The notes below the pieces were generated by a model. That model worked only from the letters and a program-made list of their open reading frames with translations, was not told the origin of the DNA and did not search any database. The position numbers and the translations under genes are program-made. Below, piece after piece: positions 7,591 through 36,814 of a stretch of 40,825 bases of DNA. Numbering within the stretch: the stretch's first letter is position 1; the number at the start of each line of letters is the position of its first letter. Origin of the DNA: Escherichia phage vB_EcoS_fKuEco01; the sequence record MT711525.1; one strand, given 5' to 3'.

Positions 7591-7592
7591 AA

Positions 7593-7769: not shown

Positions 7770-7863
7770 TGAATAAGTTCACATGTGGTGTAGTTTTTGG
7801 TTTTCTTACCGCGGTAGTCTTGCACAGTTACGGTGTTCTTTTGACGCTGCAAGAGGTGCTAAA

Positions 7864-8223
7864 ATGAGCACCGCTTTCAGTAAACGTATGCAAGGCGTGG
7901 GTACGCACCTGCTAACCAAATTCGGTAGCACGGTATCTCTGATTCGCGCTGGTTCAAAAGTATGGGATGAAGTTCTCGGTGAGTACGTCTGGTCTGCGGA
8001 TGAAGTGTTGCCGTTGAAGGCCGTTCCGGTTCCGGTAAACGCGGGACTGGTAAACGGTACGACGATTCAGGCTGGCGACATGATTGTTAAAGCCGATTAC
8101 AGCGTCGTTCCGAAGATGGAAGACAAGGTGCAATTCGGCGGCGAGCAATGGTCCATCGTAGCTATTGAGAAGAAGATGGTTAACGATGACGTCGTGGCGT
8201 ACTTTATTCAGGTGAGAAAATGA
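7864..8223 (+). CDS. hypothetical head-tail protein
   Basis: ATG at 7864 preceded by AAGAGGTG; track ORF 7783-8223 has a longer unsupported N-terminus. Confidence 0.5.
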   Translation: MSTAFSKRMQGVGTHLLTKFGSTVSLIRAGSKVWDEVLGEYVWSADEVLPLKAVPVPVNAGLVNGTTIQAGDMIVKADYSVVPKMEDKVQFGGEQWSIVAIEKKMVNDDVVAYFIQVRK

Positions 8224-8615
8224 GTTTCGCGCTCGATGTCTCTAAGTTCGTGGAAAAGGCGAAGAAGAACCCTGAGAAGGTGATGCGTCAGGTGTCTATC
8301 AAGCTGTTTTCCGCTATTATAAAGGCGAGTCCGGTAGACACGGGCCGCTTTCGTATGAACTGGATGGCATCTGGCGGTACTCCTGCTTCCGGGATTACGG
8401 ACGCTAAGGATAAATCAGGAAACACAGCAACCGGAAACGCTACGAGTTTCGTGCTGAAAGCCGCTGACTGGCATGAGTTCACGCTGACAAATAATCTGCC
8501 GTATGCGCAACGGCTGGAGTATGGTTGGTCGCAACAGGCGCCAGCCGGGGTTGTAAGGACTAATGTGTCTCGCTTCCAGCAACTCATTAACGAAGAAGCC
8601 AACAAGGTGAAATGA
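8220..8615 (+). CDS. hypothetical head-tail joining / tail completion protein
   Basis: 131-aa ORF translationally coupled to both neighbours (ATGA overlaps). Confidence 0.5.
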   Translation: MSFALDVSKFVEKAKKNPEKVMRQVSIKLFSAIIKASPVDTGRFRMNWMASGGTPASGITDAKDKSGNTATGNATSFVLKAADWHEFTLTNNLPYAQRLEYGWSQQAPAGVVRTNVSRFQQLINEEANKVK

Positions 8616-9028
8616 TGGGCTACTTTGAGGACTTAACAAAAGCGTTCGATGTTCCGCTGGTAGCCTTCGGAACCGCCAACGGCATCAAGGTCGCGCTTGA
8701 AAACATCGACGCGCCGACGTCAACCGATACGCCATATCTGGCAAGTTACATGTTACTGGCGGATACCGAGCAAGCAGATTTGTTCTTCACGGAACAACGC
8801 GCGGGTGTTTATCAGGTCGACATTAACTACGCATCGGTGAAAGGTAGCGCGCCAATCAATAAAATGGCAGACTTACTTAACACGGCATTCAAAGCAGGTA
8901 AGTCATTTTCTCGTAACGACATCTGCGCCGAGGTTCAATCGGTTAGCCTGGGGCCGCTGATTGTAGAAAACGGATGGGCCAAACGACCATTGTCAATTAA
9001 CTTTATTGCATTCACCAAGAGGCTGTGA
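8612..9028 (+). CDS. hypothetical tail protein (possible tail terminator)
   Basis: 138-aa ORF immediately upstream of the major tail protein. Confidence 0.45.
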   Translation: MMGYFEDLTKAFDVPLVAFGTANGIKVALENIDAPTSTDTPYLASYMLLADTEQADLFFTEQRAGVYQVDINYASVKGSAPINKMADLLNTAFKAGKSFSRNDICAEVQSVSLGPLIVENGWAKRPLSINFIAFTKRL

Positions 9029-10197
9029 ATATGGCTACAACTCCTTTTAAGGGCGCGAATACTGCGCAATTCTATGTGGCAGAAACTACCCCTGGCGTAA
9101 CACCGACTAACCCGGTCTGGTCGCCATTGCGTAACACAGGTGGCGTTCCTGCCATTACCCGCGACACGCTGACCTCCAACGAACTGGACGGCAGCCGTGA
9201 AACTACGTCAATCCGCACCGGTAACAAGCAGGTTAGCGGAGAATACGCTATTGAGCTTAGCTCGAAAAGCCAGGACGACTGGCTGGCGGGAGCTTTAGGC
9301 TCTACATGGCAATCCGGTAGTTCTCTGACCGGGCTATCAATTACCGTCGCGCCTGCAGGCAAGACCTTTACCCGTGCCGAAGGTAGCTTTATTTCTGACG
9401 GCGTTGAAGTGGGCGACCTGATTGCGTTTACCGGCTTAACCGGTGACAACGCAAAACCGTTTATCGTAACTGCAGTAGAGGCGCGGGTAGTGACCGGGGC
9501 GGGTATCCAGCATACCCTGACCACAGAGACAGTAACTACCGCCGCTAAGACAGGGGATAAACTGGAAACGGGAGGCCAGTGCAAGACGTTCTCTATTCTC
9601 ACCTGGTACAAAGGCCAGTGCGGCGGGACTGACGCGTACACACTAACCAAAGGCGTGGAAGTTTCTGGTTTTACCATCGAACAGGCTGTTAACGCTATGG
9701 TAACTGGCAGCTTCCCGTTCATCGGTCGCAGTCAGGAGATTCTCACCACGCAGCCGTCTGGTTCTGATTTCTCCTCTGTTACGTTTGGTGACGAGCCATT
9801 CTCCTCGGTCGATGTTTCTGTGTTCGACGGTTCTACGCCGTTGCGTTGCGACAGCCTGACCATCACCAACGACAACAGCGCGTCCGCACAGTTCGAACTC
9901 GGCAACACTAACGTAGCGTTTGTGGAGCGTAGCCGAGCAGCTAACACCTTCTCCATCTCCGGTAAGCTGTACGACATGGCGATGATTCAGAAGTTTATCA
10001 ACGAGCAGCAGGTGGAGATTAACTCTATTCTGGCTGGGGTAAACGGGGCTATGTCTTTCAGTTTGAAACGTGCAGAACTTACGGCGGTTACACCTGAGAT
10101 TGGAGGACCTGAGTCAATCACTCAGTCTATTGAAGGCCAGGCTACTGGCAACCAGTACCAGTCGTCTATTGTTATTCAGCGTATCACATACGCATAA
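9025..10197 (+). CDS. major tail protein
   Basis: 390-aa Thr/Ser/Gly-rich beta-type protein upstream of chaperone pair and tape measure. Confidence 0.6.
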   Translation: MNMATTPFKGANTAQFYVAETTPGVTPTNPVWSPLRNTGGVPAITRDTLTSNELDGSRETTSIRTGNKQVSGEYAIELSSKSQDDWLAGALGSTWQSGSSLTGLSITVAPAGKTFTRAEGSFISDGVEVGDLIAFTGLTGDNAKPFIVTAVEARVVTGAGIQHTLTTETVTTAAKTGDKLETGGQCKTFSILTWYKGQCGGTDAYTLTKGVEVSGFTIEQAVNAMVTGSFPFIGRSQEILTTQPSGSDFSSVTFGDEPFSSVDVSVFDGSTPLRCDSLTITNDNSASAQFELGNTNVAFVERSRAANTFSISGKLYDMAMIQKFINEQQVEINSILAGVNGAMSFSLKRAELTAVTPEIGGPESITQSIEGQATGNQYQSSIVIQRITYA

Positions 10198-13570: not shown

Positions 13571-15836
13571 TACCGCTAGCTTGATCGTACGAGTATCATC
13601 GACCGGCGTCGATAAAACCACATCACAACTGAACGGGCTTACCAAAGCCGCGGGGGCCGCCGCCGCTGCCGTTGTCAGTCTGGAAACTGCCAAACAGGTG
13701 TTCAGTGCGCTGGTGGACTCCCAGCGCAACTTCGATAAGCTGAACTCCGGCCTCATCACAATGACCGGGAGCGCTGAGAACGCGGCTAAGGCTTTCAGCG
13801 TCCTGCAACAGTTCGCAAAAGAAACCCCATATGGCCTTAACCAGGCGGTGGAAGGCTTTACTAAGCTGGTGGCCCTCGGCCTGAACCCAAGCAAAGAGGC
13901 GTTAATCTCCTACGGCAACACCGCCGCTGCGATGGGTAAAGACCTTAATCAGATGATTGAGGCTGTGGCGGACGCCAGTACATTTGAGTTTGAGCGACTG
14001 AAAGAGTTCGGTATCAAGTCTTCCCAACAGGCAGATACCGTTTCGTTCACGTTCCGCGGCGTCACCACCACGGTTAAAAAGAACTCCGAAGAGATTCAGA
14101 AATACCTGCTAAACATCGGCAACACCGATTTCGCCGGGGCGATGGAGACGCGCTCTAAGACGATAGACGGTCAGTTGTCGAGCCTGGCGGACTCCTTTGA
14201 TGGCCTTGTACTTGCGGTAGCGCAATCCGGTTTCGGCGACGCCGTAGGTGAGCAAGCCGCGAAGGCAGAAGACGCTATTTCGGCACTCACCGACGCCATT
14301 GCGTCTAATGAGATAGCCGCCACGCTCCAGGATTGGGTGACACTGTTCAATGAATCATTCAAGTTTATTTCTGATGCCTTAAACGACCTGGCATACGATA
14401 CCGAGGACAAATCCGCGGATATGTCAGACTCGCTGGGTACTATACCGGATGCTATCCGTGAATGGTTGCCTGACATCCAGCAGACGTTTCACGAGGTTAT
14501 TGCGTGGTTCCAGCGCATTGACGATTACGCCGTAGCGTTAGGTCAGACCCTCGCAGACGTGTTTGATCCGAGCAAAACGGCAGCACTCACATTTAAAAAC
14601 CTGACCGCAGAAGCTGACGCCGCATACGCCGCCAGCATAAAACGCGCCGAGGCCGAATCACAGGCCATCACCAACAGGTCTAAGCAGCGTAAGAAAGAAA
14701 TTGAGGAACAGCGCAAGCAGTACAACGAGCGTAAGAAGCAAGAAATAGACTTAGCCAGCCTTGTTAATAAAAAGGGCGGAACTGGTGGGGTGGGGACAAC
14801 CGACGATAAAGCAGCAAAAGCCGCCGCCAAGAAAGCAGAGCAATTGCGGAATCAGGCGCAAGATTACCTCGACACTTTGGCCCGTCAGAACAACGACGAG
14901 TTAAAGGCTATCGACGCGCAGGAACAGCAGAAACTGGCTAAGGCAAAAGAGTTCTACAGCCAGGGCGCGTTGTCCCTGAAAGAATATGAACAAGCTAAAA
15001 CAGCTATCGTCCTCGAAGCCGGGCAAAAACGACAAGATGAACTGGATAAACGCCAGAAAGAAGCCCAGGAAAAGCAGCAGAAAGGTGACGACTTCATGGC
15101 TCAGATTATGGGTCAGAACGCTACTGAGCTTGAGCTTCTCGACATCCAGGAACAGCAGAAGTTGGCGGTCGCAGATAAGTACCGCGAACAGGGTCTGATT
15201 AGCGAGAAGCAGTATCAGGCCGCGCTTAACGCCATCAACGAGCAGTACGCCACGAAACGTGCCGATGCAACGGCAACGGCCTTTGGTAACATGGCCTCAA
15301 ACATCGGGTCTGCGTTGGGTGAGGCTTCTGGCGCGTACAAGGCATTCGCTATCGTACAGGCCACTATCGCCACGTACACCGCAGCTATTGAGGCGTACAA
15401 GTCAACGGCAGCTATCCCTGTAGTTGGCCCGTTCCTGGCCCCTGTAGCCGCTGCCGCTGCCGTTGGTGCAGGTATGGCGCAGGTTTCCGCTATCCGGTCC
15501 GCGCGTGAACAGGGCGGACAGTTATCCGCAGGGCAGGCTTCCACCATCGCAGAACGCGGTAAACCAGAAGTTATTATGCCGGCTGGCGCATCTCGTGTTC
15601 GCACAGCACAGCAGATGAAAGAAATTATGGGGCAAAACGGGTCTTCTTCCGGCCCGTCTAATGTTACTATCGTAAACAACACGAGTTCTCAAATCGGCAA
15701 CGTATCCACTGAGCAAGATGATGAAGGCCGTTTGCGAATCATCATCGAGGAGCAGGTGGCTGCCTCTTTGCAGAACAGCAACAGCAAGATTAGCAAGGCC
15801 CGCAAAGCCACAAGAAATGCGCCGGGGTTTAAATAA
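13563..15836 (+). CDS. tape measure protein
   Basis: about 757 aa, Ala/Gln/Lys-rich with long coiled-coil segments; ATG 13563 after GAAGGTAG; track start is TTG 13548. Confidence 0.8.
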   Translation: MADTASLIVRVSSTGVDKTTSQLNGLTKAAGAAAAAVVSLETAKQVFSALVDSQRNFDKLNSGLITMTGSAENAAKAFSVLQQFAKETPYGLNQAVEGFTKLVALGLNPSKEALISYGNTAAAMGKDLNQMIEAVADASTFEFERLKEFGIKSSQQADTVSFTFRGVTTTVKKNSEEIQKYLLNIGNTDFAGAMETRSKTIDGQLSSLADSFDGLVLAVAQSGFGDAVGEQAAKAEDAISALTDAIASNEIAATLQDWVTLFNESFKFISDALNDLAYDTEDKSADMSDSLGTIPDAIREWLPDIQQTFHEVIAWFQRIDDYAVALGQTLADVFDPSKTAALTFKNLTAEADAAYAASIKRAEAESQAITNRSKQRKKEIEEQRKQYNERKKQEIDLASLVNKKGGTGGVGTTDDKAAKAAAKKAEQLRNQAQDYLDTLARQNNDELKAIDAQEQQKLAKAKEFYSQGALSLKEYEQAKTAIVLEAGQKRQDELDKRQKEAQEKQQKGDDFMAQIMGQNATELELLDIQEQQKLAVADKYREQGLISEKQYQAALNAINEQYATKRADATATAFGNMASNIGSALGEASGAYKAFAIVQATIATYTAAIEAYKSTAAIPVVGPFLAPVAAAAAVGAGMAQVSAIRSAREQGGQLSAGQASTIAERGKPEVIMPAGASRVRTAQQMKEIMGQNGSSSGPSNVTIVNNTSSQIGNVSTEQDDEGRLRIIIEEQVAASLQNSNSKISKARKATRNAPGFK

Positions 15837-16336
15837 TGAGCGACTTATATTTCCCACGTAGCCTTAAGCCAATTGTATCGAAAGGTTACTCAATGACCAG
15901 ACGTAACAACGTCTGGAGTGTAGATTTAGCCGGTGGCGGGGTGCGTCAGGGCCGTGACACGTATTACGACGTGTTCCCTGTTAGCGTAACCCTGATTACA
16001 TCCGCAATGGGGCGACAGGCGTTTCTGTCGTTCCTCGAAAAAGTAGACGGCGGTGCGTCAAGTTTCTGGATGGCGCACGACTTTGGCATGGGTATCGAGG
16101 ATTATCAGGTAACCATTACGTCCACTATCGCCGAGTCCACCGAAGACGGGATTAACTGGACAATCACCTTCACGGCAACCGCCGAGAAATCACCGTTCCA
16201 GGACCTTGAGAACCAATGCCTGATTAACAATCTTCCGGATTTGTACGGTTGCTATGGTGACGGGCTGGGGTGTTTCCTTAAAGCCTACGGAACCGCGCAA
16301 TCAACGTTTCCACGAATTTGGGACCCGATGCAATGA
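15836..16336 (+). CDS. minor tail protein (gpM-like position)
   Basis: 166-aa ORF, start overlaps tape-measure stop. Confidence 0.55.
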   Translation: MSDLYFPRSLKPIVSKGYSMTRRNNVWSVDLAGGGVRQGRDTYYDVFPVSVTLITSAMGRQAFLSFLEKVDGGASSFWMAHDFGMGIEDYQVTITSTIAESTEDGINWTITFTATAEKSPFQDLENQCLINNLPDLYGCYGDGLGCFLKAYGTAQSTFPRIWDPMQ

Positions 16337-16848
16337 GTCAGGAATCAGTAGAAGCAGCCTACCGCCGTAAGCTGGCGTCGAACCCAGATGGTGAGATGGA
16401 CTACATCACGTTGCAAATCAGCCACCCGTTGCTGTCGAAGACGTACTATCTTGTGCGCGGGCTGCAGGAACTTACGGCGACACTGGAAACCGGCGAAACT
16501 ATCACATTCGAACCCACCCCGATGGAAGCGTCGGGGGCTGCTAACAACAGTGATATGGACCAGACGACGACGTTTACTCTACCGGATATTCTCAATCAAC
16601 TGGACGATGAGATGGATAAAATCCCGATGAGTAACACCGAGTTGCCGAAATTCGTCTTCCGCCGTTATGTCAGTACCGACCTGTCTTATCCGGCGGACGG
16701 CCCGGTCGTGTACGAGTTACAGGCTATCAACCAGGAGAAAGGCGAGTTCTCCGCAGATGTCGGTACACCTATGCTGAACCAACGAAGCACTGGTATACTG
16801 ATGACACCTAAAGAGATACCGTTATTACGCGGCCTGTTGACCACATGA
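16333..16848 (+). CDS. minor tail protein (gpL-like position)
   Basis: ATG 16333 overlaps upstream stop (ATGA); track start is TTG 16318. Confidence 0.5.
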   Translation: MSQESVEAAYRRKLASNPDGEMDYITLQISHPLLSKTYYLVRGLQELTATLETGETITFEPTPMEASGAANNSDMDQTTTFTLPDILNQLDDEMDKIPMSNTELPKFVFRRYVSTDLSYPADGPVVYELQAINQEKGEFSADVGTPMLNQRSTGILMTPKEIPLLRGLLTT

Positions 16849-17210
16849 ATATTAACGACTACACGGGCATACCTTACGACTTTCGCAAACGCAATTGCTG
16901 GCATCACGTGCGCATTGTCCGCGCGGATGCAGGGTTAGAAACCCCTGCGTTCGACGTTACAAGCCCTACGGCAATTAACGAAGCGTTTGACGAAGGCCAC
17001 CGTGACACGAAGGGGCTTACAAAAATTGATAAGCCTGAAAACTTCTGCGCGGTGCTTATGGGTTATCGCCGTGGTGGTCGTATCGTGTGGCACGCAGGAG
17101 TATACTTCGACGGGATGGTTAGCCATTGCGAGCTTGCTTCTCGTCAGGTACGGCTTGACAGGCTGGCGGACCTCAGAGACACGTACACGGAGATTGAATT
17201 TTGGCGATAA
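16845..17210 (+). CDS. tail assembly protein with NlpC/P60-like Cys/His motif (gpK-like)
   Basis: 121 aa with NCWHH ... VWHAG ... SHCE arrangement. Confidence 0.5.
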   Translation: MNINDYTGIPYDFRKRNCWHHVRIVRADAGLETPAFDVTSPTAINEAFDEGHRDTKGLTKIDKPENFCAVLMGYRRGGRIVWHAGVYFDGMVSHCELASRQVRLDRLADLRDTYTEIEFWR

Positions 17211-19714
17211 TCCTGCACTACACGCGAAACGCTGATGGCGCTTTCGACCGTACAAAACACGTCGGGATGCCGATGGAGTTTGTCGTTAACCGTATCCCGG
17301 ACGGCGTGCCGGTGCGCGTCTACCTCGGCGAAATTGGTGATGATACCGACGTAACTGACGACTTCGACGCACTCAAAGACGAAGACGCCGTGTACCACAT
17401 TATAGAGGGTGCTGGTAGCGGGGCGCTTGGTGCCGTTAGTAAGGTGTTCGGTTTTATCCTTAAGCCAATCGCTAAGTTGTTTGGTCTGAACATGTCCGCA
17501 AACGCCAACTATACGGCGACTAACAACCAGACAACATCACCAAATAACAGCCTCACAGACCGCTCAAACAAACCACGCCCTTACGAGCGCTCCTATGACA
17601 TCTGCGGGACTGTGCAGACAATCCCTAACGACCTGATGCAGACGTATAAAGCGTTCAACTCCACGGGTGCTTTGCTGGAGTATTCGTATTATGACGCGGG
17701 GCGTGGGCATCTGCATATTGAGGCTGATGGCGTAACGGAAGGCGACACCCTGATAAGCGACATCACAGGTTCTTCTGTTGCCGTATACGCGCCGTATACC
17801 TCCCCGAACAACACCACATCGCCGCAACTACAAATCGGCGACGTCATTGATCAGAAACTCTATGTGACATACTCCAACGACGACGTTGACGGTATTGTGC
17901 TGAAAGCGCCAAACGACATCGGAGCTAACCCAAGCTCCGACGGCACCGCCAAACGTATTTCAAACACCGGCTACATTTATGACCCGTCGGGTGATTCTGC
18001 TTTTTCTGAGTTTCTTAGCGTCGGAGATGTCGCGGTGCTGAGCAACTTTGACGTTGCTGATGTCACTAACCTGAACGGCTCGTTTGAGGTTTTATACGTT
18101 GACGACTTCGAAGTAAGATTAGCGGTAAACGGTGCGTCTAACTGGGCGGCGTTGACCAGCGGGCAGACGTACACGTTAACAGAGCGTTCAGATACGTTTA
18201 TGGGCCCGAGCAACACCTATGACGTATCCCTTACCGACTGGTATTACATGGTGCGCGGAGAAGTTGACCGAGTACTTGCTAACGTTGCCGGGCAGAACGG
18301 CCTCTACAAATACGACGGTGGCTATAATCGCACCAGCGTAACGGTAGAACTCCAGTACCAGATGATTGACTCTCGGCGCAACCCATTGAGCGATATTTAC
18401 ACAGTACAGGCTACAATTACCGGTAATAGCACGGATTACGTCGGTACGTCTATCTACGGGCAATTGCCTACTGCATCGCGTTTCCGCGCCCGTATGCGCC
18501 GTATAACGAATTTTGATAAGGACTACAACGGTACAGTAAGCGACGAGATAACCTTCATCAACCTGTACGGGCAGTCGCTGGACACAACCCCACACTACGG
18601 CAACCGAACTACCGTGCATTGCGCACGTAAACAGACGCCGCGTGCCGCCAGTATCGACAACCCAGAACTGCGCATGATTGCGACCGAGATGTGCTACAAA
18701 TATCTGGGTAATGGGGTATTCGACCCAGTAATGACGCCTAATACACAGGCGGTGCAGTCGCTAATCAGACTGGCGCGTGACCCGGCGGTTGGTAATCTGG
18801 AGCTGACAACGGCAAACATGGACAAGTTACTCGCCGTGCAGGAAGAGATTGAATCTTATTTTGGCAGCGAATTAGCCGGGCAATTCTGCTACACGTTCGA
18901 CGACTACGACACGACTATGCAGGACATTGTTCAGACCATAGCTGAAGCCGTGTTCTGTACTGCGTACCGTAAAGGCGCGGACATTATGCTGCGTTTCGAC
19001 CGTCCGGTTGCAGGGCCTGAAATGGTGTTCACCCACCGTAGTAAGACGACCGGTACGGAGAAATGGACACGCACGTTCAACGATTCGACAACCTACGATA
19101 GCCTGTCGTTCTCATACATCGACCCGGATATTAACGTACAGGAAACGATTTACATCCCGGAAGAACTGGGTGCAAACACCGAGGAATACGAATCGAAGGG
19201 CGTGCGCAACTATCAGCAGGCGTACTGGCTGGCGTGGCGTCGCTATCAGCGCAATGCGTTAAGTAAAGTTGTCGTAGAGTTCGAAGCTACTGAAGAAGGT
19301 GCGCTCGCTACCCCCGGCGGCGTAATCAGCGTGGTTAAAGGCTCGCGTATTGCGCCACAAGACGGCTATGTTGTTGCCGTTAATGGGCTTACGCTGACGC
19401 TGTCGCAGCCTGTTACGTTTACCGCGGGCGATGACCACTCCATCATCCTCAAGAAGCGCGACGGCTCTGTACAGAGTATCTCCGTTATAAAAGGAGGCCA
19501 CGACCGCGAGGTGATTATGCTATCGGCGCCGGAGGAAGCAATCTACACGGGGAATAGCGCGCTAAAAACTGAGTTTTCATTCGGCAACGAAGCAAGGCAT
19601 AATGCTCAGAAGATAGTTGTTTCTTCAATCGACCCGGGCGACGACCGCACGGTCAAGATTACTGGCTACAACTATGACGACGGATTCTATAAATACGACG
19701 GCGTCGCGCCATAA
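17201..19714 (+). CDS. tail tip / central fibre protein (gpJ-like)
   Basis: 837-aa ORF after K-like gene; track start is TTG 17201, in-frame ATG at 17267. Confidence 0.6.
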   Translation: MAIILHYTRNADGAFDRTKHVGMPMEFVVNRIPDGVPVRVYLGEIGDDTDVTDDFDALKDEDAVYHIIEGAGSGALGAVSKVFGFILKPIAKLFGLNMSANANYTATNNQTTSPNNSLTDRSNKPRPYERSYDICGTVQTIPNDLMQTYKAFNSTGALLEYSYYDAGRGHLHIEADGVTEGDTLISDITGSSVAVYAPYTSPNNTTSPQLQIGDVIDQKLYVTYSNDDVDGIVLKAPNDIGANPSSDGTAKRISNTGYIYDPSGDSAFSEFLSVGDVAVLSNFDVADVTNLNGSFEVLYVDDFEVRLAVNGASNWAALTSGQTYTLTERSDTFMGPSNTYDVSLTDWYYMVRGEVDRVLANVAGQNGLYKYDGGYNRTSVTVELQYQMIDSRRNPLSDIYTVQATITGNSTDYVGTSIYGQLPTASRFRARMRRITNFDKDYNGTVSDEITFINLYGQSLDTTPHYGNRTTVHCARKQTPRAASIDNPELRMIATEMCYKYLGNGVFDPVMTPNTQAVQSLIRLARDPAVGNLELTTANMDKLLAVQEEIESYFGSELAGQFCYTFDDYDTTMQDIVQTIAEAVFCTAYRKGADIMLRFDRPVAGPEMVFTHRSKTTGTEKWTRTFNDSTTYDSLSFSYIDPDINVQETIYIPEELGANTEEYESKGVRNYQQAYWLAWRRYQRNALSKVVVEFEATEEGALATPGGVISVVKGSRIAPQDGYVVAVNGLTLTLSQPVTFTAGDDHSIILKKRDGSVQSISVIKGGHDREVIMLSAPEEAIYTGNSALKTEFSFGNEARHNAQKIVVSSIDPGDDRTVKITGYNYDDGFYKYDGVAP

Positions 19715-19768
19715 GGCAGCGGTTTCTCCGATGGATTCAGCAATGGTTTTAATTAAAGAGGACTCTAT

Positions 19769-22723
19769 ATGTCAAGCGGATGTGGTGACGTTTTAAGCCT
19801 GGCGGATTTACAGACCGCCAAGAAGCACCAGATTTTTGAAGCCGAGGTTATCACGGGTAAATCCGGCGGAGTAGCCGGGGGTGCAGATATTGATTACGCG
19901 ACAAACCAGGTTACAGGGCAGACCCAGAAGACACTACCTGCCGTGTTGCGTGATGCTGGTTTTAAACTGGCAGATTTTGATTTCACGTCAGGCGGTACAC
20001 TATCCGCTAACGACCGAAACACCGCAGTTTTGTGGCCGTCGTCCTCTGGTGGCGATGGGGATTGGTACCATTGGTTGGGCGCTCTGCCAAAAACTATCCC
20101 GGCGTCATCTTCTCCGCAGTCCACCGGTGGCGTGGCAGATGGGGCGTGGCAGCCTGTCGGGTCGGTCATACTGCGGCAGCAAATATCTGATGTAAACGGT
20201 GCAATTCTGTACCCAGATTTACATGTGGCGCGATGGAAGGACGAATACGACCCGCGCGCATGGGGCGCCGTGGGCGACGGCGTAACTGATGATACTCAAT
20301 CTATTTTTAATGTATTAGCAGCTTCCCACAACAATTGGATTATAGACGGCAGGGGCTTGACTTATAAAGTTTCCCAATTACCTGACATTAGTAAATTTAA
20401 GAATGCTGCATTCGTTTACGAGCGCGTAGCTGGGCAACCGCTTACTTATGTAGCTGATGGCTTCTTTAACAGCTCACTAACTAAGGTGACGGATACTCCG
20501 TTCTACAACGCATGGACGCAGGATAAAACTTTCGTCTACGACAATGTTATTTACGCTCCCTTTATGGCAGGCGAACGACATGGCGTTCAAAACTTACATG
20601 TAGCTTGGGTTCGCTCTGGTGACGACGGGCAGACTTGGTCAATGCCTGAGTGGTTGACCCCAATCCATGCTGACTATAATGCTAGTGTTTCCGCGGACAG
20701 AGTTAACTACCACTGCATGAGCATGGGTACGTGCGGCAACCGATTATATGCAGTTATAGAAACCCGCTACTTATCTAATATGCGGATGAAGAAGGCAGAA
20801 CTTTGGTCACGCCCAATGCCGTATTTTAGACACCCAACCGGCGGAATAACTATTAGTTCTGGTTCCACTACTGCTACCATTGTTATAGAAAATCACGGCC
20901 TAAAAGCAGGAGATGCGGTTAACTTCTCTAATACATCGGCAACTGGCGTATCGGGTAATATGACGGTTGCGTCTATAATTAACCGAAATACGTTCACTGT
21001 TACGCTCTCAAGCCCGGCGAGTTCCACCATAAACAATGCGGGTGTTACCTGGAACTTCGCAACGCGATTCTGGGACAGCCCGTGGGAAATTACCGAATTG
21101 CCTGAGGTAGCATACTCCACTAACGCTGATTTGTGTGTCACGGAGACACATAGTTTTGCGGTTATAGACGATGTTAACTACACTATCGCTGTCGGCTATC
21201 ACAACGGCGATGTGTCCCCTAGGCGTCTCGGTGTCTTGTATTTTAGTAACGTGTATGACAATCCTGGCGTATTCGTTCGTCGCACTGTCGCTCAGGCATA
21301 CGCTGATAACGCTTCTGAGCCGTGCGTGAAAAGTTATGGTGGTGTGTTATACCTTACCACACGCGGCACATTACCTACTTCCCCTGGCTCTACACTGGCG
21401 ATGAGCACCGATTCTGGGCAAAACTGGAGCTACTTGCGATTTCCGAACAATGTACATCACTCCAATCTTCCGTTCGCTAAAGTAGGTGACTATCTCTACA
21501 TCTTTGGTACAGAACGTGCCTTTGGTGAGTGGGAAGGTGGTGAGCAGGACAGCCGCTATGAAGGTTCGTATCCGAGGACCTTTATGTGCAAAGTTAATGT
21601 GTCGTCCTGGCCTTCATCTTTAGATGATGTTCAGTGGTTTAATATTACCGACCAAATATACCAGGGTCATATCGTTAACTCTGCTGTCGGCGTCGGCTCG
21701 GTCTGTGTTAAAGATGGCTGGTTGTACTATATCTTTGGTGGGGAAGACTTCTTCTCTCCCTGGAGCATAGGGGATAACAGTGCGAAGTTATGGTACAAAC
21801 ATGATGGGCATCCGGCTGACTTATATAGCTACCGGATAAAGATTGAAGACCACCCGTATGTATCCCGTGATTTCAAATACGGAGCAACTCCTAACCGTAC
21901 ACTACCTGTCGCCATGGGGGTAGATGGTGTACGTCATGTAGGGGCACCTTTAACATTTGATAATGATGTAAGCGTGTACTCACTGCATGTAACGGGGCTG
22001 AAATACGATGGTACACAACAGTCCGCCGTGCGTGCACAGTTTGATGGTGATTACGGGCTGATTTCAAAAACAGTCCCCACTAAAAACCCATCGGGTCAAA
22101 GACTGATAGTTAGCGGTGGTGATGGTGCATCCCGTTCCGATGGTGCGTTGCTGCAACTGTACGGGGCAAACCATGCAAAGCCTAACAGGGCTATTATGTA
22201 TGCGTCAGGAGGCTTCTACTCATACAACAATTTTCTTCCTTACTTAGACTCGCGAGTGTCTTTAGGTTCGGCAGGTAATAGGTGGACTACGGTGTACGCG
22301 ACCACCGGTACGATAAATACGTCTGATGGTACACTTAAGACGAATAAAGAGGAAATTGAGGGACAACTCCTTACCGCATGGGAAGATATACATGTAATAT
22401 CTTTTAAGTGGCTTGAAAGCCTAGCAATCAAGGGTGACACTGCAAGGATACACTTCGGTGTGATAGCCCAAGATGTGCGAGACATCTTGGTCAACCATGG
22501 GCTTATGGAGAAAGATTCTACCGATTGTAAATATGCTTTCTTGTGCTACGACCCAATTGAAGCTGCGTATGATATTGATGAAGATGGCCAGACTGTACAA
22601 GTATCCCCTCCCGGCGGCAGATGGGGGGTTAGGGCGGACCAGATGTTCTTCATAGAGATTGCCTATCAGCGTAAGAAGATGCGCGAGTTCGAGAAGAGGC
22701 TGGCAGCACTAGAAGATAAATAA
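19769..22723 (+). CDS. tailspike with sialidase (endosialidase-like) catalytic region and C-terminal intramolecular chaperone domain
   Basis: 984 aa; two Asp-box motifs SGDDGQTW and STDSGQNW; C-terminal segment resembles peptidase-S74-type chaperone domains; strong RBS. Confidence 0.7.
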   Translation: MSSGCGDVLSLADLQTAKKHQIFEAEVITGKSGGVAGGADIDYATNQVTGQTQKTLPAVLRDAGFKLADFDFTSGGTLSANDRNTAVLWPSSSGGDGDWYHWLGALPKTIPASSSPQSTGGVADGAWQPVGSVILRQQISDVNGAILYPDLHVARWKDEYDPRAWGAVGDGVTDDTQSIFNVLAASHNNWIIDGRGLTYKVSQLPDISKFKNAAFVYERVAGQPLTYVADGFFNSSLTKVTDTPFYNAWTQDKTFVYDNVIYAPFMAGERHGVQNLHVAWVRSGDDGQTWSMPEWLTPIHADYNASVSADRVNYHCMSMGTCGNRLYAVIETRYLSNMRMKKAELWSRPMPYFRHPTGGITISSGSTTATIVIENHGLKAGDAVNFSNTSATGVSGNMTVASIINRNTFTVTLSSPASSTINNAGVTWNFATRFWDSPWEITELPEVAYSTNADLCVTETHSFAVIDDVNYTIAVGYHNGDVSPRRLGVLYFSNVYDNPGVFVRRTVAQAYADNASEPCVKSYGGVLYLTTRGTLPTSPGSTLAMSTDSGQNWSYLRFPNNVHHSNLPFAKVGDYLYIFGTERAFGEWEGGEQDSRYEGSYPRTFMCKVNVSSWPSSLDDVQWFNITDQIYQGHIVNSAVGVGSVCVKDGWLYYIFGGEDFFSPWSIGDNSAKLWYKHDGHPADLYSYRIKIEDHPYVSRDFKYGATPNRTLPVAMGVDGVRHVGAPLTFDNDVSVYSLHVTGLKYDGTQQSAVRAQFDGDYGLISKTVPTKNPSGQRLIVSGGDGASRSDGALLQLYGANHAKPNRAIMYASGGFYSYNNFLPYLDSRVSLGSAGNRWTTVYATTGTINTSDGTLKTNKEEIEGQLLTAWEDIHVISFKWLESLAIKGDTARIHFGVIAQDVRDILVNHGLMEKDSTDCKYAFLCYDPIEAAYDIDEDGQTVQVSPPGGRWGVRADQMFFIEIAYQRKKMREFEKRLAALEDK

Positions 22724-22727
22724 AACT

Positions 22728-22750
22728 AAGGCCCCAAACGGGGCCTTTTC
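22728..22750. terminator. bidirectional terminator hairpin AAGGCCCC-AAAC-GGGGCCTT
   Basis: exact reverse complement of the hairpin at 10202-10221; sits at the convergent junction of tailspike and replication module. Confidence 0.7.
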
Positions 22751-22751: not shown

Positions 22752-22889
22752 CTACTCTTCTGATAACTTCTCCAGTACAAACGCCAGTTGCGCATTAGCG
22801 GCGTCTCTCTGCTGCCGTAGCCGTAGAACCTCCTCCTCAAGTTCCTTGATACGTTTTTGCAATGCCGGAATCGGGGCTATGATGTTCAT
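22752..22889 (-). CDS. small coiled-coil protein
   Basis: 45-aa ORF whose ATG overlaps the SNF2 helicase stop (ATGA); leucine-heptad content. Confidence 0.3.
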   Translation of the reverse strand: MNIIAPIPALQKRIKELEEEVLRLRQQRDAANAQLAFVLEKLSEE

Positions 22890-24310
22890 TTCTTACCTCG
22901 TCTCTTCATGTAATTAAGCAACTCTTCCTGGACCGATTTCTTCTCGTCAGTACGCGAGGCAACAACCTCGTCCAGCGTGTCTTTAGCAACGATGTGATAG
23001 AGGAACACTGGTCGCTCATGGCCCGCCTGCTTCTGGCGCACCGGGCCTATACGCTCGACAACCTGCAAATAGTGCTCAAGGTTCCAGCCTTGCGAAATAA
23101 ACGCCAGATGATGTCCGCCGTCCTGTAAATTCAAACCATGGCCGGCTGACGCGGGGTGAACGCACAAAATCTCGATTTCACCCCGATTCCACGCTTCCAT
23201 CTGCTTATTACCTTTCGCACCTTTGGCAAACGCCTGCGCCTGTGGGAATCGCTTAAGGATGCGCTCCAGTTCGTGCTTGAACTGATAAGCCACAAGTAAC
23301 GGTGCGCCCTGTAGCTCCTCAACAATCGACTCAAGCGCGTCCAGTTTCGTATCGTGTACTTTCTCCCAGTCTTTGGTTGCCTCACCGTCTGGCCCCGACA
23401 CATATACGGCACCGGAGGCAATCTGCAAACACTTTGACGTCTTCGCCGCCGCGTTAGCCGCTTCAACTTCTCCGCTCTCCAGTTCCGCGAATAACTTCTC
23501 CTCCATATCTAGGTACGCCTGACGTGCCTTCTTCGGCAGGTCGATTTCAACCGGCACTATAATAGGTGCTTCACACCCAAACCACTCAGCGGCGTCAATA
23601 GTGAGACTAATGTCCTTCATCTTCTGGTGGATCTCATTATCTGCACCAGGACGCGCATGATACTCCCGCGCCATCGCCGACTTACCTTTCTGTACCGAGT
23701 TAAACCATCGGTAGGTGAATGCCGTATATGAGGACCCCAGGCGCTCGCCGGCGTCGATAAACCAGTTCTGACCCCACAGGTCCTTGAGGCCGTTTGGTGA
23801 GGGCGTGCCGGTAAGGTTTATAAAACGCTTAACCTTTCCAAACGCCACCTTACTGAGCGCCTTTGCCCGCTTGCTACCACCTGAACGGCTGCGGAATGAT
23901 TTCAGCTTCGTGCTTTCGTCGGCGACGATAACGGTAAAAGGCCAGTCGTCTTTGCCGTAGTAGTCAATCAGCCATTCGATAACTTCGTAGTTTGTACACA
24001 CCACGTTAGCGTCTGATTCCAGCGCCGCGATGCGGCGCTTCTCTGAACCTGTCGCGTCTACGACACGCAGACATGGGAAATTCCATTTCTCTTGCTCTGC
24101 CGGCCATGTGCCGGACGCAACACGTAAAGGAGCCAGAATTAACACGCGGTCGTCGTCCGTAAGTTGCCCGTTGCGGAACAGGCGGTTTAAAGTCCACAGG
24201 ACGCTGCCAGTCTTCCCGGCGCCCATGCTCGCCCAAATATTACAGCGATGGTGCTGCAACATGAACGAGGTCATGAGCTTCTGGTATTCGCGCCTTTGAA
24301 ACTTACTCAT
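22886..24310 (-). CDS. SNF2/DEAD-like helicase
   Basis: 474 aa; Walker A MGAGKTG and DEST box (VADEST). Confidence 0.75.
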   Translation of the reverse strand: MSKFQRREYQKLMTSFMLQHHRCNIWASMGAGKTGSVLWTLNRLFRNGQLTDDDRVLILAPLRVASGTWPAEQEKWNFPCLRVVDATGSEKRRIAALESDANVVCTNYEVIEWLIDYYGKDDWPFTVIVADESTKLKSFRSRSGGSKRAKALSKVAFGKVKRFINLTGTPSPNGLKDLWGQNWFIDAGERLGSSYTAFTYRWFNSVQKGKSAMAREYHARPGADNEIHQKMKDISLTIDAAEWFGCEAPIIVPVEIDLPKKARQAYLDMEEKLFAELESGEVEAANAAAKTSKCLQIASGAVYVSGPDGEATKDWEKVHDTKLDALESIVEELQGAPLLVAYQFKHELERILKRFPQAQAFAKGAKGNKQMEAWNRGEIEILCVHPASAGHGLNLQDGGHHLAFISQGWNLEHYLQVVERIGPVRQKQAGHERPVFLYHIVAKDTLDEVVASRTDEKKSVQEELLNYMKRRGKK

Positions 24311-25127
24311 TTACGGCCCCCATAAACGCCTTTATAAATTCGGCGGCTACTTGCGGGACGATGGCATTGCCGTAACCGCGCAATCGTCCCACTCTTGCGG
24401 GTATCCCATTAGCCAGCGGGAATGCGCCGGGTTCAACCGGCCGGAACTTTCCATCACGGCATCCGAGCCAGTCAGCATCTGACCAGAAGCCGTGGTGCGG
24501 GTTGGTTGACTCGCTTTCAATCCCTGCTCTGTTGAGTAGTCCAGCCTGTCGAATGTTCTGTCCCTCCCGCCCGTGCGAATCACTGTCTCTCCGCTCCCTC
24601 TGAAGTCGTTCGCACACGGTGTTGGCCAGTTGCTGCGCTCCGAAGAACAATCGATTCCTTTTGTGCGGTGCGCCGACGCTACAAGCTGGGAGTACGGCAA
24701 ACCCGACGGCGTAGTCTTCTCTTTCCAGGTGAGTTTGTAAATCGCACATCCACGATTTTGCAATTGCTGCCGCAACCTGCTCCCCAAAGATAACTGGAGG
24801 GCGGCACTCGCTGATGAGGTCGAGGAACACAGGTGCGAGGTGTCTCTGGTCGAACTGTCCGAGTTGCTTTCCTGCCGTGCTAAACGGTTGGCAAGGCGGG
24901 CTTCCCGTCCAGAGAGGCGCATCTTCCGGAACTCCCGCAAGTCTGAGCGCGAGAGGCCAGCCGCCGATACCAGCGAAAAAATGACACTGGGTGAACCCGT
25001 CAAGGTCTTCTGGTCTAACTTCGGTAATGCTTCTTTCATCTACAACTCCAAAAGGTATGTGACCCTGTTTTATTAATTCACGCAGCCACGCGGCTGCGCC
25101 TTTATCCCATTCGTTGTAATAGTTCAT
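24303..25127 (-). CDS. DNA (cytosine-5) methyltransferase
   Basis: 274 aa; motif I FAGIGGW, motif [12 protein letters not shown]-terminal GNAIVPQV. Confidence 0.75.
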
Positions 25128-31326: not shown

Positions 31327-33588
31327 CTATTCCAAATCCTCCTCTGTCACTGTCAGCATTTCATTCGGTTCGTATATCGTCTTCGGAATCTTGTTGTCGT
31401 TTATGCCCCACGGCAGCCGGTACTGCTTAGGTATGGGCCTGTTGTTGTTATCCAGACCCGAGACGATAATCCCGGCCTCATGCATCTCTTCCAGTTTCTT
31501 TCGAAGGTCGTTATTAGCGTTAATCGGTACGCCGTAACTATCTTCTTTCGCCGCTTTGACGATAGCTGACATAGAGAACCCTCGCTTGTCGTCGCCTTGC
31601 TCCTGCAATTTACCTAATGCGTAAATAACCGTAGCCTCTTTGGAATCCAGTTTCTCGAACTGGCCTACCTTTTCTTTAACGGCTTCCTTCTGTTCGTCAG
31701 TCATACCTTCTACTTTCTTCACAAAGACAGAGAAGGCGTTGAAGTTGACAAAGACATCAATATGCGGATTTCCCGCGTCAAAATCGCGCACATCATCACT
31801 GCTATACCCTTCCGGAAGCCCCATGAAGTTGTGAGTTGGTTCTTTCTTTTCCGGCGGCTCCGCTATCTGAATCTTCTGTATTACGAATCCTCTGGCTTTC
31901 TGCCGTTCTCCATTTCGGTTCTTTATGTGATACAGGTTTATCTCTAAGTTATTGTCGTTGTCTGGTTTATGCAGGAACATCCCGTTATCGATGGAGTTGT
32001 GAAAATCACTTCCACCCTTCGGCATCATGCCGTTTTCAGACGGAACAGTTTCGTCGATGTTTTTAGTCGGGTGCACCATAGCGCCTACCGCAGCGTTAAG
32101 CGTCGACGCTATTTCGTTAAGCGCCTGCGCCGCTTCTTTCATAGACCGGTTGTCGTTCTCGTCGAAGCCCGGTATGCAAGTTTGTAGAGTATCAAACGTA
32201 ACCTTTACAATTTTCTCTTCACCGGCGACACGGCGCATCATTCTCACCGCCTGGCGACGCCATGCTTCGTCGAGGAGGTTACACCCATCTGCAACACAAT
32301 CGATAATGTGTAAGCGGTCGAGGCTATCGCCAAGTGCAATCTGCAAAGATTTTTTATGTCTCTCGAACGACTGCGCACCTTCGCCCGCGAAGATAAATGC
32401 GTGACCTTCTGCGACCTCAGCACCACCGAACGCATATCTTTTTTCGGCGGCGATAGCAGCGTCAATCGCCATACTAAATGTTGACTTACCAGTGTGGGAC
32501 TTTGCGCAAATGTAGAACGATTCGTTGGTCTGCATAAGGCCGTCTACTACGGGGTAAGCAGGTTCTTTTTCTACTTCCGGCTCGTCTTCGAGGTCTTCAA
32601 GCGTACAAGTTACAGGCTCCTCGTTCTCTGTGCGGTGCAGTTCTTCAATCTCTTCGTCCGGTAAGTCAGGCAAAGCCGCACGAATGCTGTTAATACTGAT
32701 AGGTTGCTTGTCTACGTTAAGCTCGTCGGGCAGGCCGCACATACGCAAGGCCAAATGTTGCCGACGGTTAAGCTCGGTACAAGCGCCGTTGTTTGTGTGC
32801 TGGCACACGAAGCGCACCTCTTTACCGTCAAGCATGATGCTGGTGGAGCCTTTGCCTGTATGCAGATGTTCGTTCGGACATGGCACTTCATACCCTCGGC
32901 CGGAAGATAAAGCGTCAAGGCCCAGCTCGGCTTCGCAGAAATGAGCTATATCTGCGTTAAGCCCGTGCTCATCGGCGGCAAGTGTCTTAGCCTCGCGTTT
33001 ACGCAGCCCCATCTCTTCGGCTTTCTTGATGTACCGCTCCGCACGGATAACACGCCCTTCTGTAACCGTTATCTTAGACTCTTTATGCGGCAGGTAGATG
33101 AGGCGGTTGCCGTCTTCCGTGCAGTGGTCGCGCAGCGATTCATCTATTTCTAACTCGGCACAAATAGCACGTTGCACCATCCACGCGTCGTTAGAGTTAA
33201 ACGGCGTGCGAGCTGGAACCAGAACGCGGAATGCGTAATCCCCGTTTTTACACGCGTGCTGGTGTGACGCCGTTGTATGCAGAATGTTGAAGAACGGCGC
33301 ATTCTTAAATTTGCGTGTCAGGTTGCGGTACTGAGTACGGTTGAGATGGTCAAAGTCGAACTTAACCACACTGTCTTCCAGAATCGCGTTCTTACGGCGA
33401 CCACCAACAGGTGCGATAGCTTTCTGTTTAATCTTGGCGGCGTCGTACTCTTCCTTAGTCCACGACGGGTCCACGGATAAACGCTTCGATGTATCACAGA
33501 CATACTCCACAAACTGCTCCAGCGGCATTTCACGCGCTACAGGGTTTTTATCGAATGTGTTACGCAGCGTCGCAAAAACAATATTCAT
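31327..33588 (-). CDS. primase-helicase
   Basis: 753 aa; Cys/His zinc-binding segment; P-loop AKSHTGKST. Confidence 0.65.
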   Translation of the reverse strand: MNIVFATLRNTFDKNPVAREMPLEQFVEYVCDTSKRLSVDPSWTKEEYDAAKIKQKAIAPVGGRRKNAILEDSVVKFDFDHLNRTQYRNLTRKFKNAPFFNILHTTASHQHACKNGDYAFRVLVPARTPFNSNDAWMVQRAICAELEIDESLRDHCTEDGNRLIYLPHKESKITVTEGRVIRAERYIKKAEEMGLRKREAKTLAADEHGLNADIAHFCEAELGLDALSSGRGYEVPCPNEHLHTGKGSTSIMLDGKEVRFVCQHTNNGACTELNRRQHLALRMCGLPDELNVDKQPISINSIRAALPDLPDEEIEELHRTENEEPVTCTLEDLEDEPEVEKEPAYPVVDGLMQTNESFYICAKSHTGKSTFSMAIDAAIAAEKRYAFGGAEVAEGHAFIFAGEGAQSFERHKKSLQIALGDSLDRLHIIDCVADGCNLLDEAWRRQAVRMMRRVAGEEKIVKVTFDTLQTCIPGFDENDNRSMKEAAQALNEIASTLNAAVGAMVHPTKNIDETVPSENGMMPKGGSDFHNSIDNGMFLHKPDNDNNLEINLYHIKNRNGERQKARGFVIQKIQIAEPPEKKEPTHNFMGLPEGYSSDDVRDFDAGNPHIDVFVNFNAFSVFVKKVEGMTDEQKEAVKEKVGQFEKLDSKEATVIYALGKLQEQGDDKRGFSMSAIVKAAKEDSYGVPINANNDLRKKLEEMHEAGIIVSGLDNNNRPIPKQYRLPWGINDNKIPKTIYEPNEMLTVTEEDLE

Positions 33589-33713
33589 TTCTTTTTCTCC
33601 GCACGTTCTAAGGCTTCCTGCATACGGCGCATTGCGCGGTTCATCTTTACTGGTGCGAAGAAATCAGCGCCGTGTTTCTGGCGGCGTAGCTGTGGAACTA
33701 TTAACTTCGTCAT
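33585..33713 (-). CDS. small basic protein
   Basis: 42-aa ORF whose stop overlaps the primase start (ATGA). Confidence 0.3.
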   Translation of the reverse strand: MTKLIVPQLRRQKHGADFFAPVKMNRAMRRMQEALERAEKKK

Positions 33714-33763
33714 TGTATAATCCTTGTGCTTACTTTGATGATTTATGCTTCGGCCCCGACGTT

Positions 33764-33997
33764 CTAGCGTTGGGGTTTCTTTTGTCTACGCACCGCATTA
33801 ACCCACTCTCCTTCGCTACGGTAAAAACTGCAATCAAGGATATCCTCTATAGAAAATTTAACTATTTTAGTGGGTCCACAAAAGTTATAAGGGAAAAGTT
33901 CTACATAACACCCATCGTCGGTTATATTTGACGCAATCTTGAAATAATATTTAATGCTGCCGTCTTCGCGGAAGCTACAACCCATACGCCCAATCAT
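33764..33997 (-). CDS. hypothetical protein (AT-rich gene)
   Basis: 77-aa ORF with lower GC than its neighbours. Confidence 0.4.
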   Translation of the reverse strand: MIGRMGCSFREDGSIKYYFKIASNITDDGCYVELFPYNFCGPTKIVKFSIEDILDCSFYRSEGEWVNAVRRQKKPQR

Positions 33998-34176
33998 TTC
34001 ACGTTCTCCTTAATCCATGCTTCAACTTTATTACGGTCAAATGTTCCAGGCAAACGGCGACCCATAACCTTAATACAACAATCCGGGAATTTACCACTGC
34101 GTAACCAGTTATTAATTGTCTGACGTGTCACCCCAATACGCTCGGCTACTTCATTCTGGGTCATGTAATGTTGCAT
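33994..34176 (-). CDS. small HTH DNA-binding protein (AlpA/excisionase-like fold)
   Basis: ATG 34176 preceded by AGGAG; MTQNEVAERIGVTRQTINNW motif; track ORF extends to GTG 34248. Confidence 0.55.
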   Translation of the reverse strand: MQHYMTQNEVAERIGVTRQTINNWLRSGKFPDCCIKVMGRRLPGTFDRNKVEAWIKENVK

Positions 34177-34207
34177 TTTTAAATCTCCTGTTTGTTTGGT
34201 GAAGCCA

Positions 34208-34236
34208 AGTATAGGATAGCGGGAATGTAAAAGCAA
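34208..34236 (-). promoter_or_regulatory. promoter TTGCTT-17-TATACT for the HTH gene
   Basis: hexamers read on the minus strand; divergent from the promoter at 34284. Confidence 0.4.
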
Positions 34237-34283
34237 CCAAAACACCACACAAAGTTACTAAGATGCAAAAGATGCTACTGGTA

Positions 34284-34312
34284 TTGACTTTTACTGAGAA
34301 ATATGGTAAGCT
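34284..34312 (+). promoter_or_regulatory. sigma70-type promoter (TTGACT-17 bp-TGgTAAGCT)
   Basis: same architecture and -10 as the promoter at 4420-4448. Confidence 0.6.
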
Positions 34313-34315
34313 CGT

Positions 34316-34428
34316 CCTGAGCTTGTGAAGTATGAACAAGCGACCGCGGTGCGCGGCAGGCGAAACGAGCACGTCTCGACGTGTGGAGTGAGTCTCGCTG
34401 ACGCATTCGGAAGGGCCAAAGTCTATTG
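34316..34428 (+). ncRNA. conserved promoter-proximal RNA element, copy 2
   Basis: shares conserved 5' and 3' blocks with 4452-4562; central segment differs. Confidence 0.5.
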
Positions 34429-34499
34429 TAATTCCCGCCTAATTATCTAAGTTACTGATTTGCCGTAGGTTAGAACCGCCAGCTCACTCACTCACTCTT

Positions 34500-34530
34500 G
34501 GTGCCTTCGGCACCACGTTCGTTTCGTTTC
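34500..34530 (+). terminator. terminator-like hairpin GGTGCC-UUCG-GCACC with U-rich tail
   Basis: tetraloop hairpin followed by acgttcgtttcgtttcg. Confidence 0.4.
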
Positions 34531-34581
34531 GCTCGCTACCCCCTTAAACGAAAGAATCACAACGGCAACGTAACTAATCTC

Positions 34582-34610
34582 TTGCACACCCCAACATAAT
34601 AGGATACTAT
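34582..34610 (+). promoter_or_regulatory. early-type promoter TTGCAC-17-TACTAT with conserved leader
   Basis: near-identical unit at 35875-35903 and, on the minus strand, 12652-12680. Confidence 0.55.
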
Positions 34611-34644
34611 TCACTTATCGAAACGAGACAGAGGAGTGAGGGTT

Positions 34645-34830: not shown

Positions 34831-34834
34831 AGTG

Positions 34835-35867: not shown

Positions 35868-35874
35868 AATTTAC

Positions 35875-36812: not shown

Positions 36813-36814
36813 TT

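Follow-up and report, generated by a model that had tools for sequence, protein, structure and literature searches.

An endosialidase tailspike of exchangeable modules in the K1-type Escherichia phage vB_EcoS_fKuEco01

The tailspike gene of Escherichia phage vB_EcoS_fKuEco01 lies at nucleotides (nt) 19769..22723 of a 40,825-nt stretch of DNA (sequence record MT711525.1), which was analysed whole and is called the window here. There is little doubt that the product of this gene is the sole tailspike of a K1-dependent Kagunavirus, built from an anchor, a neck and a GH58 endosialidase cassette that was moved by recombination. None of the data contradict its assignment as an endosialidase tailspike.

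The tailspike matches phage endosialidases

In the list of open reading frames (ORFs), the tailspike gene is on the + strand, starts with ATG and encodes 984 amino acids (aa) followed by a stop codon. An initial annotation, made from the letters of the DNA, had described the ORF as a tailspike bearing two bacterial sialidase Asp-boxes, SGDDGQTW and STDSGQNW, and a pattern search located both (Table 1). The two Asp-boxes are not a product of chance, because at least two S.D.G..W matches occurred in just 2/20000 shuffles of the tailspike protein. We also aligned the tailspike with two other endosialidases, gp17 of phage K1F (endoNF) and that of PNJ1809-36, a phAPEC8-like myovirus, and the residue correspondences to endoNF given below come from this alignment. 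Asp-box 1 is invariant across it, as are the S, D, G and W of Asp-box 2.

A Pfam scan of the protein matched all four endosialidase families over their full profile length, together with Peptidase_S74 and Tail_spike_N. The stalk domain among them contains Arg838 and has the triple beta-helix at its end. In the same scan, the generic sialidase family BNR_2 (PF13088) scored 14.8 bits, below its cut-off of 31.4. Since the endosialidase families are complete and BNR_2 is sub-threshold, the protein is best assigned to the endosialidases specifically and not to the sialidases in general. When the sequence was matched to chains of the Protein Data Bank, the top solved structure was 4hiz, titled 'Endosialidase' (expectation value (E) of 0, 1304 bits, aa 166-851), with 78.7% identity over that range as counted from the alignment. 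The endoNF structures from phage K1F (1v0e, 3gvl and others) were matched at E ~1e-228, and the 4hiz and 1v0e alignments reach aa 848-851. The sialidase-type fold expected by the initial annotation is thus borne out by both searches.

The active-site residues of endoNF are listed as H350, R549, E581, R596 and R647 (PMC12632334). All five are conserved in the tailspike, where they correspond to H271, R485, E517, R532 and R583. EndoNF (1v0e, 3gvl, 3gw6) also shares the domain order, the Asp-boxes and the chaperone cleavage residues, at 51% overall identity and with homology reaching into the neck from aa ~87; it differs in being carried by a podovirus and in several insertions and deletions in propeller loops. 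On sequence grounds, the gene product is a complete phage endosialidase (endo-N-acetylneuraminidase, GH58) tailspike.

We compared the whole 2955-nt gene to phage records by megablast and found near-identical genes of the same length, at 95-99.7% DNA identity. These were the tailspikes of vB_EcoS_fTaEco03 and fTaEco01 ('tailspike endosialidase', 99.7 and 99.6%), ULINTec2 ('endo-N-acetylneuraminidase', 99.5%), K1G and K1H (both 'tailspike 63D sialidase', 98.1 and 97.4%) and JSSK01 (95.2%), as well as the endo-N-acetylneuraminidase of record AB015437 (95.8%), whose organism line reads 'Phage #D' and which we take to be phage 63D. At the protein level, identity to the fTaEco03 tailspike is 99.3%. 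In these K1-dependent Kagunavirus phages the tailspike occupies the same locus, between the gene for a large tail protein and a convergent helicase gene, and has an identical architecture with few point differences. Because the window is moreover 98.2% identical to fTaEco01 over its first 25 kb, we assign the window to the K1-dependent Kagunavirus phages (subfamily Guernseyvirinae), as a siphophage of the K1G/K1H/63D type.

Several of these near-identical genes belong to characterised systems. ULINTec2 is K1 capsule-dependent and has the narrowest host range within its set (PMC8541614), and the purified K1H enzyme degrades K1 polysaccharide and rescues mice (PMC5696595). Expression and purification of the JSSK01 orthologue, and antibodies raised against it, are reported in a paper that also has a section assessing its function (PMC11641727). 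Together with the intact active site, these K1-dependent or K1-degrading relatives uphold the proposal that the tailspike is a K1-capsule depolymerase and sets the host range. By analogy with its homologues, the spike would bind alpha-2,8-polysialic acid and cleave it in the propeller active site at H271, R485, E517, R532 and R583. Capsule cleavage would let the phage tunnel through the K1 capsule and would limit its host range to K1-encapsulated E. coli.

Predicted maturation by a C-terminal chaperone

The autoproteolytic intramolecular chaperone that had been suspected at the C-terminus is supported by the Peptidase_S74 match. This domain forms the extreme C-terminus, directly after the triple beta-helix stalk. 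The chaperone construct of endoNF, 3gw6, aligned to aa 753-984 (E 1.7e-56), and 3gud, 4uw8 and 7y5s were also matched. The chaperone domains of PNJ1809-36 and K1F carry an insertion of ~30 aa that is absent from the fKuEco01 tailspike. The S911/K916 dyad and Arg897 of endoNF have been described (PMC8326128). All of the self-cleavage residues are conserved, with R838, T851, S852 and K857 of the tailspike corresponding to R897, T910, S911 and K916 of endoNF.

Cleavage had been placed at a Ser-Asp dipeptide near nt 22320. The coordinate was accurate, as this dipeptide is aa 852-853 (nt 22322-22327), but the bond was not, since homology places cleavage one bond upstream, at Thr851|Ser852, with the Ser departing with the chaperone. 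We predict this bond because in the homologous chaperone of T5 pb1 the scissile bond is Thr1263-Ser1264 and the mature K1F protein, like mature pb1, is without the Ser (PMC4690869), and because the 4hiz chain terminates at ...GTINT, which is aa 851 of the tailspike. Residues 1-851 have a computed mass of 92.9 kDa, and aa 852-984 one of 15.2 kDa. Purified K1H depolymerase migrates at 93 kDa 'after proteolysis' (PMC5696595), in agreement with the value for aa 1-851.

If the fKuEco01 protein behaves as its homologues do, the chaperone domain would drive the folding of the stalk triple beta-helix into a trimer, and Ser852, activated by Lys857 and acting with Arg838 of the neighbouring chain, would cut the Thr851-Ser852 bond. 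This would release a 15 kDa fragment and leave a mature spike of 93 kDa.

Module boundaries and exchange

The tailspike gene is a three-part mosaic of anchor, neck and enzyme cassette, a conclusion that follows from the ends of homology with sister phages, from the sharing of its parts among all phage records and from a swapped neck in phage vB_EcoS_XY1. The joints were read directly from a blastn comparison of window positions 14769-27723 with the tailspike regions of sister phages. Four K1-independent Kagunavirus or Jerseyvirus phages, K1ind1, vB_Eco_K-01, Schulenburg and Ent1, have a tailspike at the same genome position, with a related neck and with anchor, last codons and terminator in common with fKuEco01. 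In contrast to the K1-dependent phages, their tailspikes carry unrelated enzyme modules from aa ~60-136 onward, between the point where nucleotide homology ends and the point where it restarts (Table 1), and have neither an endosialidase nor an S74 chaperone domain. The module of K1ind1 is 'HK620-like' per GenBank. One further homology end in the neck segment was found at nt 19963.

In the protein alignment with these four Guernseyvirinae tailspikes, the anchor shows almost no variation, and it is presumed to attach the spike to the tail tip. The neck beyond it, up to about aa 135, varies more, and after a conserved Leu-Arg divergence is complete. The idea that receptor-binding modules are exchanged on an anchor that stays conserved is thus established by the sister phages themselves, but the joint is not at nt ~20290, where the initial annotation had put it. 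It falls at nt ~20161-20175 (aa 131-136), which is 110-120 nt upstream of the step in G+C content discussed below. The cassette would have moved by recombination at this conserved Leu-Arg joint and at the extreme 3' end of the coding sequence (~22716). The GenBank record of K1ind1, from the K1G/K1H series, describes its protein as 'N-term similar to 63D and C-term similar to HK620 Tsp', and a review describes the exchange of endosialidase modules between CUS-3, K1F and P22-type phages (PMC5380687).

A tblastn search over all phage records showed that different parts of the protein are shared with different phages. The segment aa 1-138 is found at 70-73% identity in hundreds of Jersey-like Salmonella phages, aa 133-984 at 74.5% identity in PNJ1809-36, aa 87-984 at ~50% identity in K1F-like podoviruses, and aa 163-984 at ~45% identity in K1E-like podoviruses. 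The sole part in common with the fibres of T5-like and Klebsiella phages is aa ~820-984, the chaperone domain. The 4hiz endosialidase and that of PNJ1809-36 thus have the cassette from aa ~133 to the C-terminus in common with the tailspike, whereas the N-terminal attachment part of the PNJ1809-36/phi92 type is unrelated and its carrier is a myovirus baseplate fibre.

Phage XY1 (MN927225) has the same endosialidase cassette (96.1% DNA identity) on a Schulenburg-type neck, with the join reading ...QTDPNLR|QQISDVNG. The megablast match to this record begins at gene nt 407, and we considered that its tailspike might be truncated or have a different N-terminus. This was rejected, as the circular record opens and closes inside the tailspike gene and the peptide DKVVYDPVSKTWYSYTGTLPVVVPASFNPVGNANWKPQTDP is encoded twice at the circular junction. 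Because an overlap of ~100 nt is duplicated there, the annotated 891-aa 'endosialidase' coding sequence of XY1 is an assembly or circularisation artefact, and the real tailspike gene is intact.

Base composition

Within the gene, raw G+C is best split into two segments at nt 20282 (0.56 to the left, 0.468 to the right), a change point whose likelihood ratio was reached by only 8/1000 codon shuffles. The composition break proposed at ~20290 was therefore real. The first ~500 nt had also been described as G+C-rich like the rest of the genome; they are G+C-rich, but at 0.56 they exceed the 0.51 of the whole window.

Whether this step reports the exchange is a separate question. An alternative, which we consider evenly balanced, is that the step reflects amino-acid composition and not horizontal transfer, so that modular exchange is real and yet goes unreported by composition. 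On this account, a Gly/Ala/Pro-rich anchor and neck are followed by a propeller and beta-helix rich in Asn, Ser, Thr, Tyr, Ile and Lys. The step comes mostly from codon positions 1 and 2, where G+C falls from 0.52-0.57 in the first 180 codons to 0.40-0.54 beyond them, and it sits there because these first codons are rich in Gly, Ala and Pro. The G+C of second codon positions in aa 1-133 is 0.541, compared to ~0.41 in typical genes of the window. Third codon positions alone gave no significant change point inside the gene (278/1000 permutations), and we dropped them as a means of placing the joint. The distance of the step from the homology joint favours the same account, and so does an equal step in the tailspikes of K1ind1, vB_Eco_K-01, Schulenburg and Ent1, which carry unrelated enzymes (0.52-0.55 in the first 135 codons, 0.47-0.49 in the remainder).

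Protein composition cannot, however, explain the synonymous codon usage of the cassette. Its third-position G+C is 0.469, compared to 0.591 +/- 0.028 (minimum 0.547) in the other genes of 300 aa or longer, 12 in number (z = -4.3), and its synonymous-codon distance of 0.187, compared to 0.068 +/- 0.022 (maximum 0.143), lies beyond all 500 control samples of the same size. The cassette is one of the window's two lowest-G+C tracts, the other being at ~32300-37000. In K1F the endosialidase cassette is likewise lower in G+C than its flanks (0.446 vs 0.495), whereas that of the phAPEC8-like myovirus matches its low-G+C genome (0.381 vs 0.386) and has a third-position G+C of 0.24, compared to 0.47 here. 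These values fit an endosialidase cassette that is a mobile module incompletely adjusted to each genome. The codon usage of the cassette is atypical, but the step itself, which the initial annotation had taken as a sign of exchange, is weak evidence, as it lies mostly at codon positions 1 and 2 and the sister tailspikes are alike. Composition agrees with exchange but neither proves nor locates it, while the comparative data do both.

Substrate specificity and points of doubt

Three points limit the reading of the gene as an anchor, a neck and a recombined endosialidase cassette. The 63D enzyme is a homotetramer according to a review (PMC5380687), which is an awkward fit for an architecture of trimeric chaperone and triple beta-helix. 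Nor is low G+C peculiar to the cassette, given the equal step in sister tailspikes with unrelated enzymes. Furthermore, the binding partner of the anchor does not emerge from profile searches of the adjacent tail proteins, since no Pfam family was found at E<=0.001 for the three tail products scanned (15836..16336, 16845..17210 and 17201..19714).

It is also possible, though we think it unlikely, that the enzyme is not strictly K1-specific and also accepts alpha-2,9 or mixed alpha-2,8/2,9 polysialic acid, the K92 capsule, with a wider host range as a result. The closest solved relative, 4hiz, is 78.7% identical over the catalytic and stalk parts and almost identical to the phAPEC8-like protein in our alignment; we take 4hiz to be the structure of phi92 gp143. 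The phi92 gp143 protein has been reported as a bifunctional enzyme that acts on both alpha-2,8 and alpha-2,9 linkages (PMC13450770). Against this, ~21% of residues differ from 4hiz, and the phages with this tailspike gene were isolated and described as K1-dependent, and ULINTec2 stood out in its set for the narrowest host range (PMC8541614). We found no K92 test of any Kagunavirus enzyme. A broader proposition adds to such K92 cleavage by the Kagunavirus endosialidase that the N-terminus consists of two independently exchangeable pieces, anchor and neck, and not one, with a precise joint at Leu-Arg; we regard the two taken together as doubtful.

The endosialidase assignment itself began with just two Asp-boxes, which are present in many BNR proteins, but the notion of a generic exo-sialidase or BNR-repeat protein, or of a catalytically dead polysialic-acid-binding spike, is hardly credible and effectively refuted by the sequence comparisons, given the sub-threshold BNR_2 score (14.8 bits < 31.4), the full-length endosialidase families (E down to 3e-223), the five of five conserved catalytic residues and the purification of orthologues at 95-97% DNA identity, of which the K1H enzyme is active.

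Genomic surroundings

Table 1. Coordinates of the tailspike gene, its domains, joints and neighbours in the window, with the limits of nucleotide homology to sister phages (a dot in the strand column marks features given without a strand)
Feature	Position (nt)	Strand	Basis or remark
837-aa tail protein	17201..19714	+	Upstream of tailspike; 'tip attachment protein J' in Schulenburg record
Ribosome-binding site AAAGAGGA	19756..19763	+	Ends 6 nt upstream of tailspike ATG; read from sequence
Tailspike endosialidase gene	19769..22723	+	ORF list; DNA identity to annotated relatives
Anchor module, aa 1-62	19769..19954	+	Protein alignment with K1ind1, vB_Eco_K-01, Schulenburg, Ent1
Neck module, aa 63-135	19955..20173	+	Contains Tail_spike_N; at least two versions among relatives
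Tail_spike_N, PF18668, aa 97-131	20057-20161	+	Pfam E 1.3e-13; upstream of endosialidase domains
5' cassette joint, aa 131-136, at conserved Leu-Arg	20161..20175	.	vB_Eco_K-01 stops at 20161, XY1 restarts at 20175
Enzyme cassette, aa ~136-984	~20174-22716	+	Replaced by other enzymes in sister phages
End_N_terminal (endosialidase N-terminal extension), PF12218, aa 167-233	20267..20467	+	Pfam E 3.7e-37, full profile length
End_beta_propel, six-bladed catalytic beta-propeller, PF12217, aa 234-693	20468..21847	+	Pfam E 3.2e-223, profile 1-367/367
Asp-box 1, SGDDGQTW, aa 283-290	20615-20638	+	Pattern search
End_beta_barrel, inserted in propeller, PF12195, aa 351-433	20819..21067	+	Pfam E 1.8e-41, full length
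Asp-box 2, STDSGQNW, aa 546-553	21404-21427	+	Pattern search
End_tail_spike stalk, PF12219, aa 694-851	21848..22321	+	Pfam E 2.5e-72
Predicted self-cleavage site Thr851|Ser852	22319..22324	+	Alignment with endoNF T910/S911; bond nt 22321|22322
Intramolecular chaperone domain (Peptidase S74), PF13884, aa 852-984	22322..22720	+	Pfam E 8.7e-13, match aa 852-912
3' cassette joint, last two or three codons	22715..22717	.	Homology restarts of K1ind1, vB_Eco_K-01, Schulenburg
G+C-rich hairpin AAGGCCCC-AAAC-GGGGCCTT	22728..22747	.	Between tailspike and convergent downstream gene
45-aa ORF MNIIAPIPALQKRIKELEEEVLRLRQQRDAANAQLAFVLEKLSEE	22752..22889	-	Between tailspike and helicase; stop overlaps helicase start
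SNF2-type helicase	22886..24310	-	Convergent with tailspike
C5-cytosine methylase	24303..25127	-	Downstream of tailspike
Homology to K1ind1	stops 19944, restarts 22715		blastn
Homology to vB_Eco_K-01	stops 20161, restarts 22717		blastn
Homology to Schulenburg	stops 20019, restarts 22717		blastn
Homology to Salmonella phage Ent1	stops 20038, restarts 22786		blastn

The hairpin that follows the tailspike gene was called on the minus strand by a terminator scan, and on the + strand a short TTTTCTCT run can be read after it. Terminators are annotated at the equivalent position in the Schulenburg and Ent1 records. The hairpin is likely a bidirectional terminator of two convergent genes. Scans of the whole window for tRNA genes and Rfam families detected no RNA genes.

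The 45-aa ORF beyond the hairpin gave weak, sub-threshold matches to DUF1192 and DUF4140. At the nucleotide level it is 90-92% conserved in Schulenburg and vB_Eco_K-01, both of which have a small hypothetical gene annotated at this place. The Ent1 helicase (7341..9806) is annotated with an intein carrying a LAGLIDADG endonuclease. The helicase of the window is without an intein, as homology covers 22786-24185 and 24212-24286, on either side of the Ent1 insertion. Next to the tailspike, Schulenburg has an HNH endonuclease and XY1 has ORFs annotated as 'primase' and 'exonuclease'. Since relatives differ in the intein, the HNH endonuclease and the 'primase'/'exonuclease' ORFs, the junction next to the tailspike is a hotspot for mobile insertions.

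A 230-aa ORF (24347..25039, - strand) is nested entirely within the C5-cytosine DNA methylase gene, in another frame of the same strand. It is also open in K1ind1, with 86% aa identity and the annotation 'putative Mte8-like protein', and in vB_Eco_K-01, with 73% aa identity, where both frames remain open through an insertion of 40 aa. The product of this ORF matched no Pfam family, and the ORF may represent a genuine overlapping gene.

Farther downstream, the low-G+C tract at ~32300..37000 is deeper than that of the cassette, with a minimum of 0.443 for the 2.5-kb span from 33538, and holds few ORFs of at least 100 aa. This tract is probably a block of small early genes.

Significance

Earlier work on near-identical sequences has already described the gene, its chaperone-mediated maturation and the swapping of endosialidase cassettes between phage families. 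The present analysis adds the exact coordinates of the joints and the caution that a step in G+C marks such joints unreliably. The Kagunavirus enzyme may share the alpha-2,9/K92 activity reported for phi92 gp143 (PMC13450770); if it did, siphophages described as 'K1-specific' could have a K92 host range. If anchor and neck are indeed separate exchangeable pieces with a precise joint, the Leu-Arg position would be usable for engineering tailspike swaps. Endosialidase phages and their enzymes are under development as therapeutics and as tools for polysialic acid research, and correct recognition of the gene predicts a K1-restricted host range for the phage.

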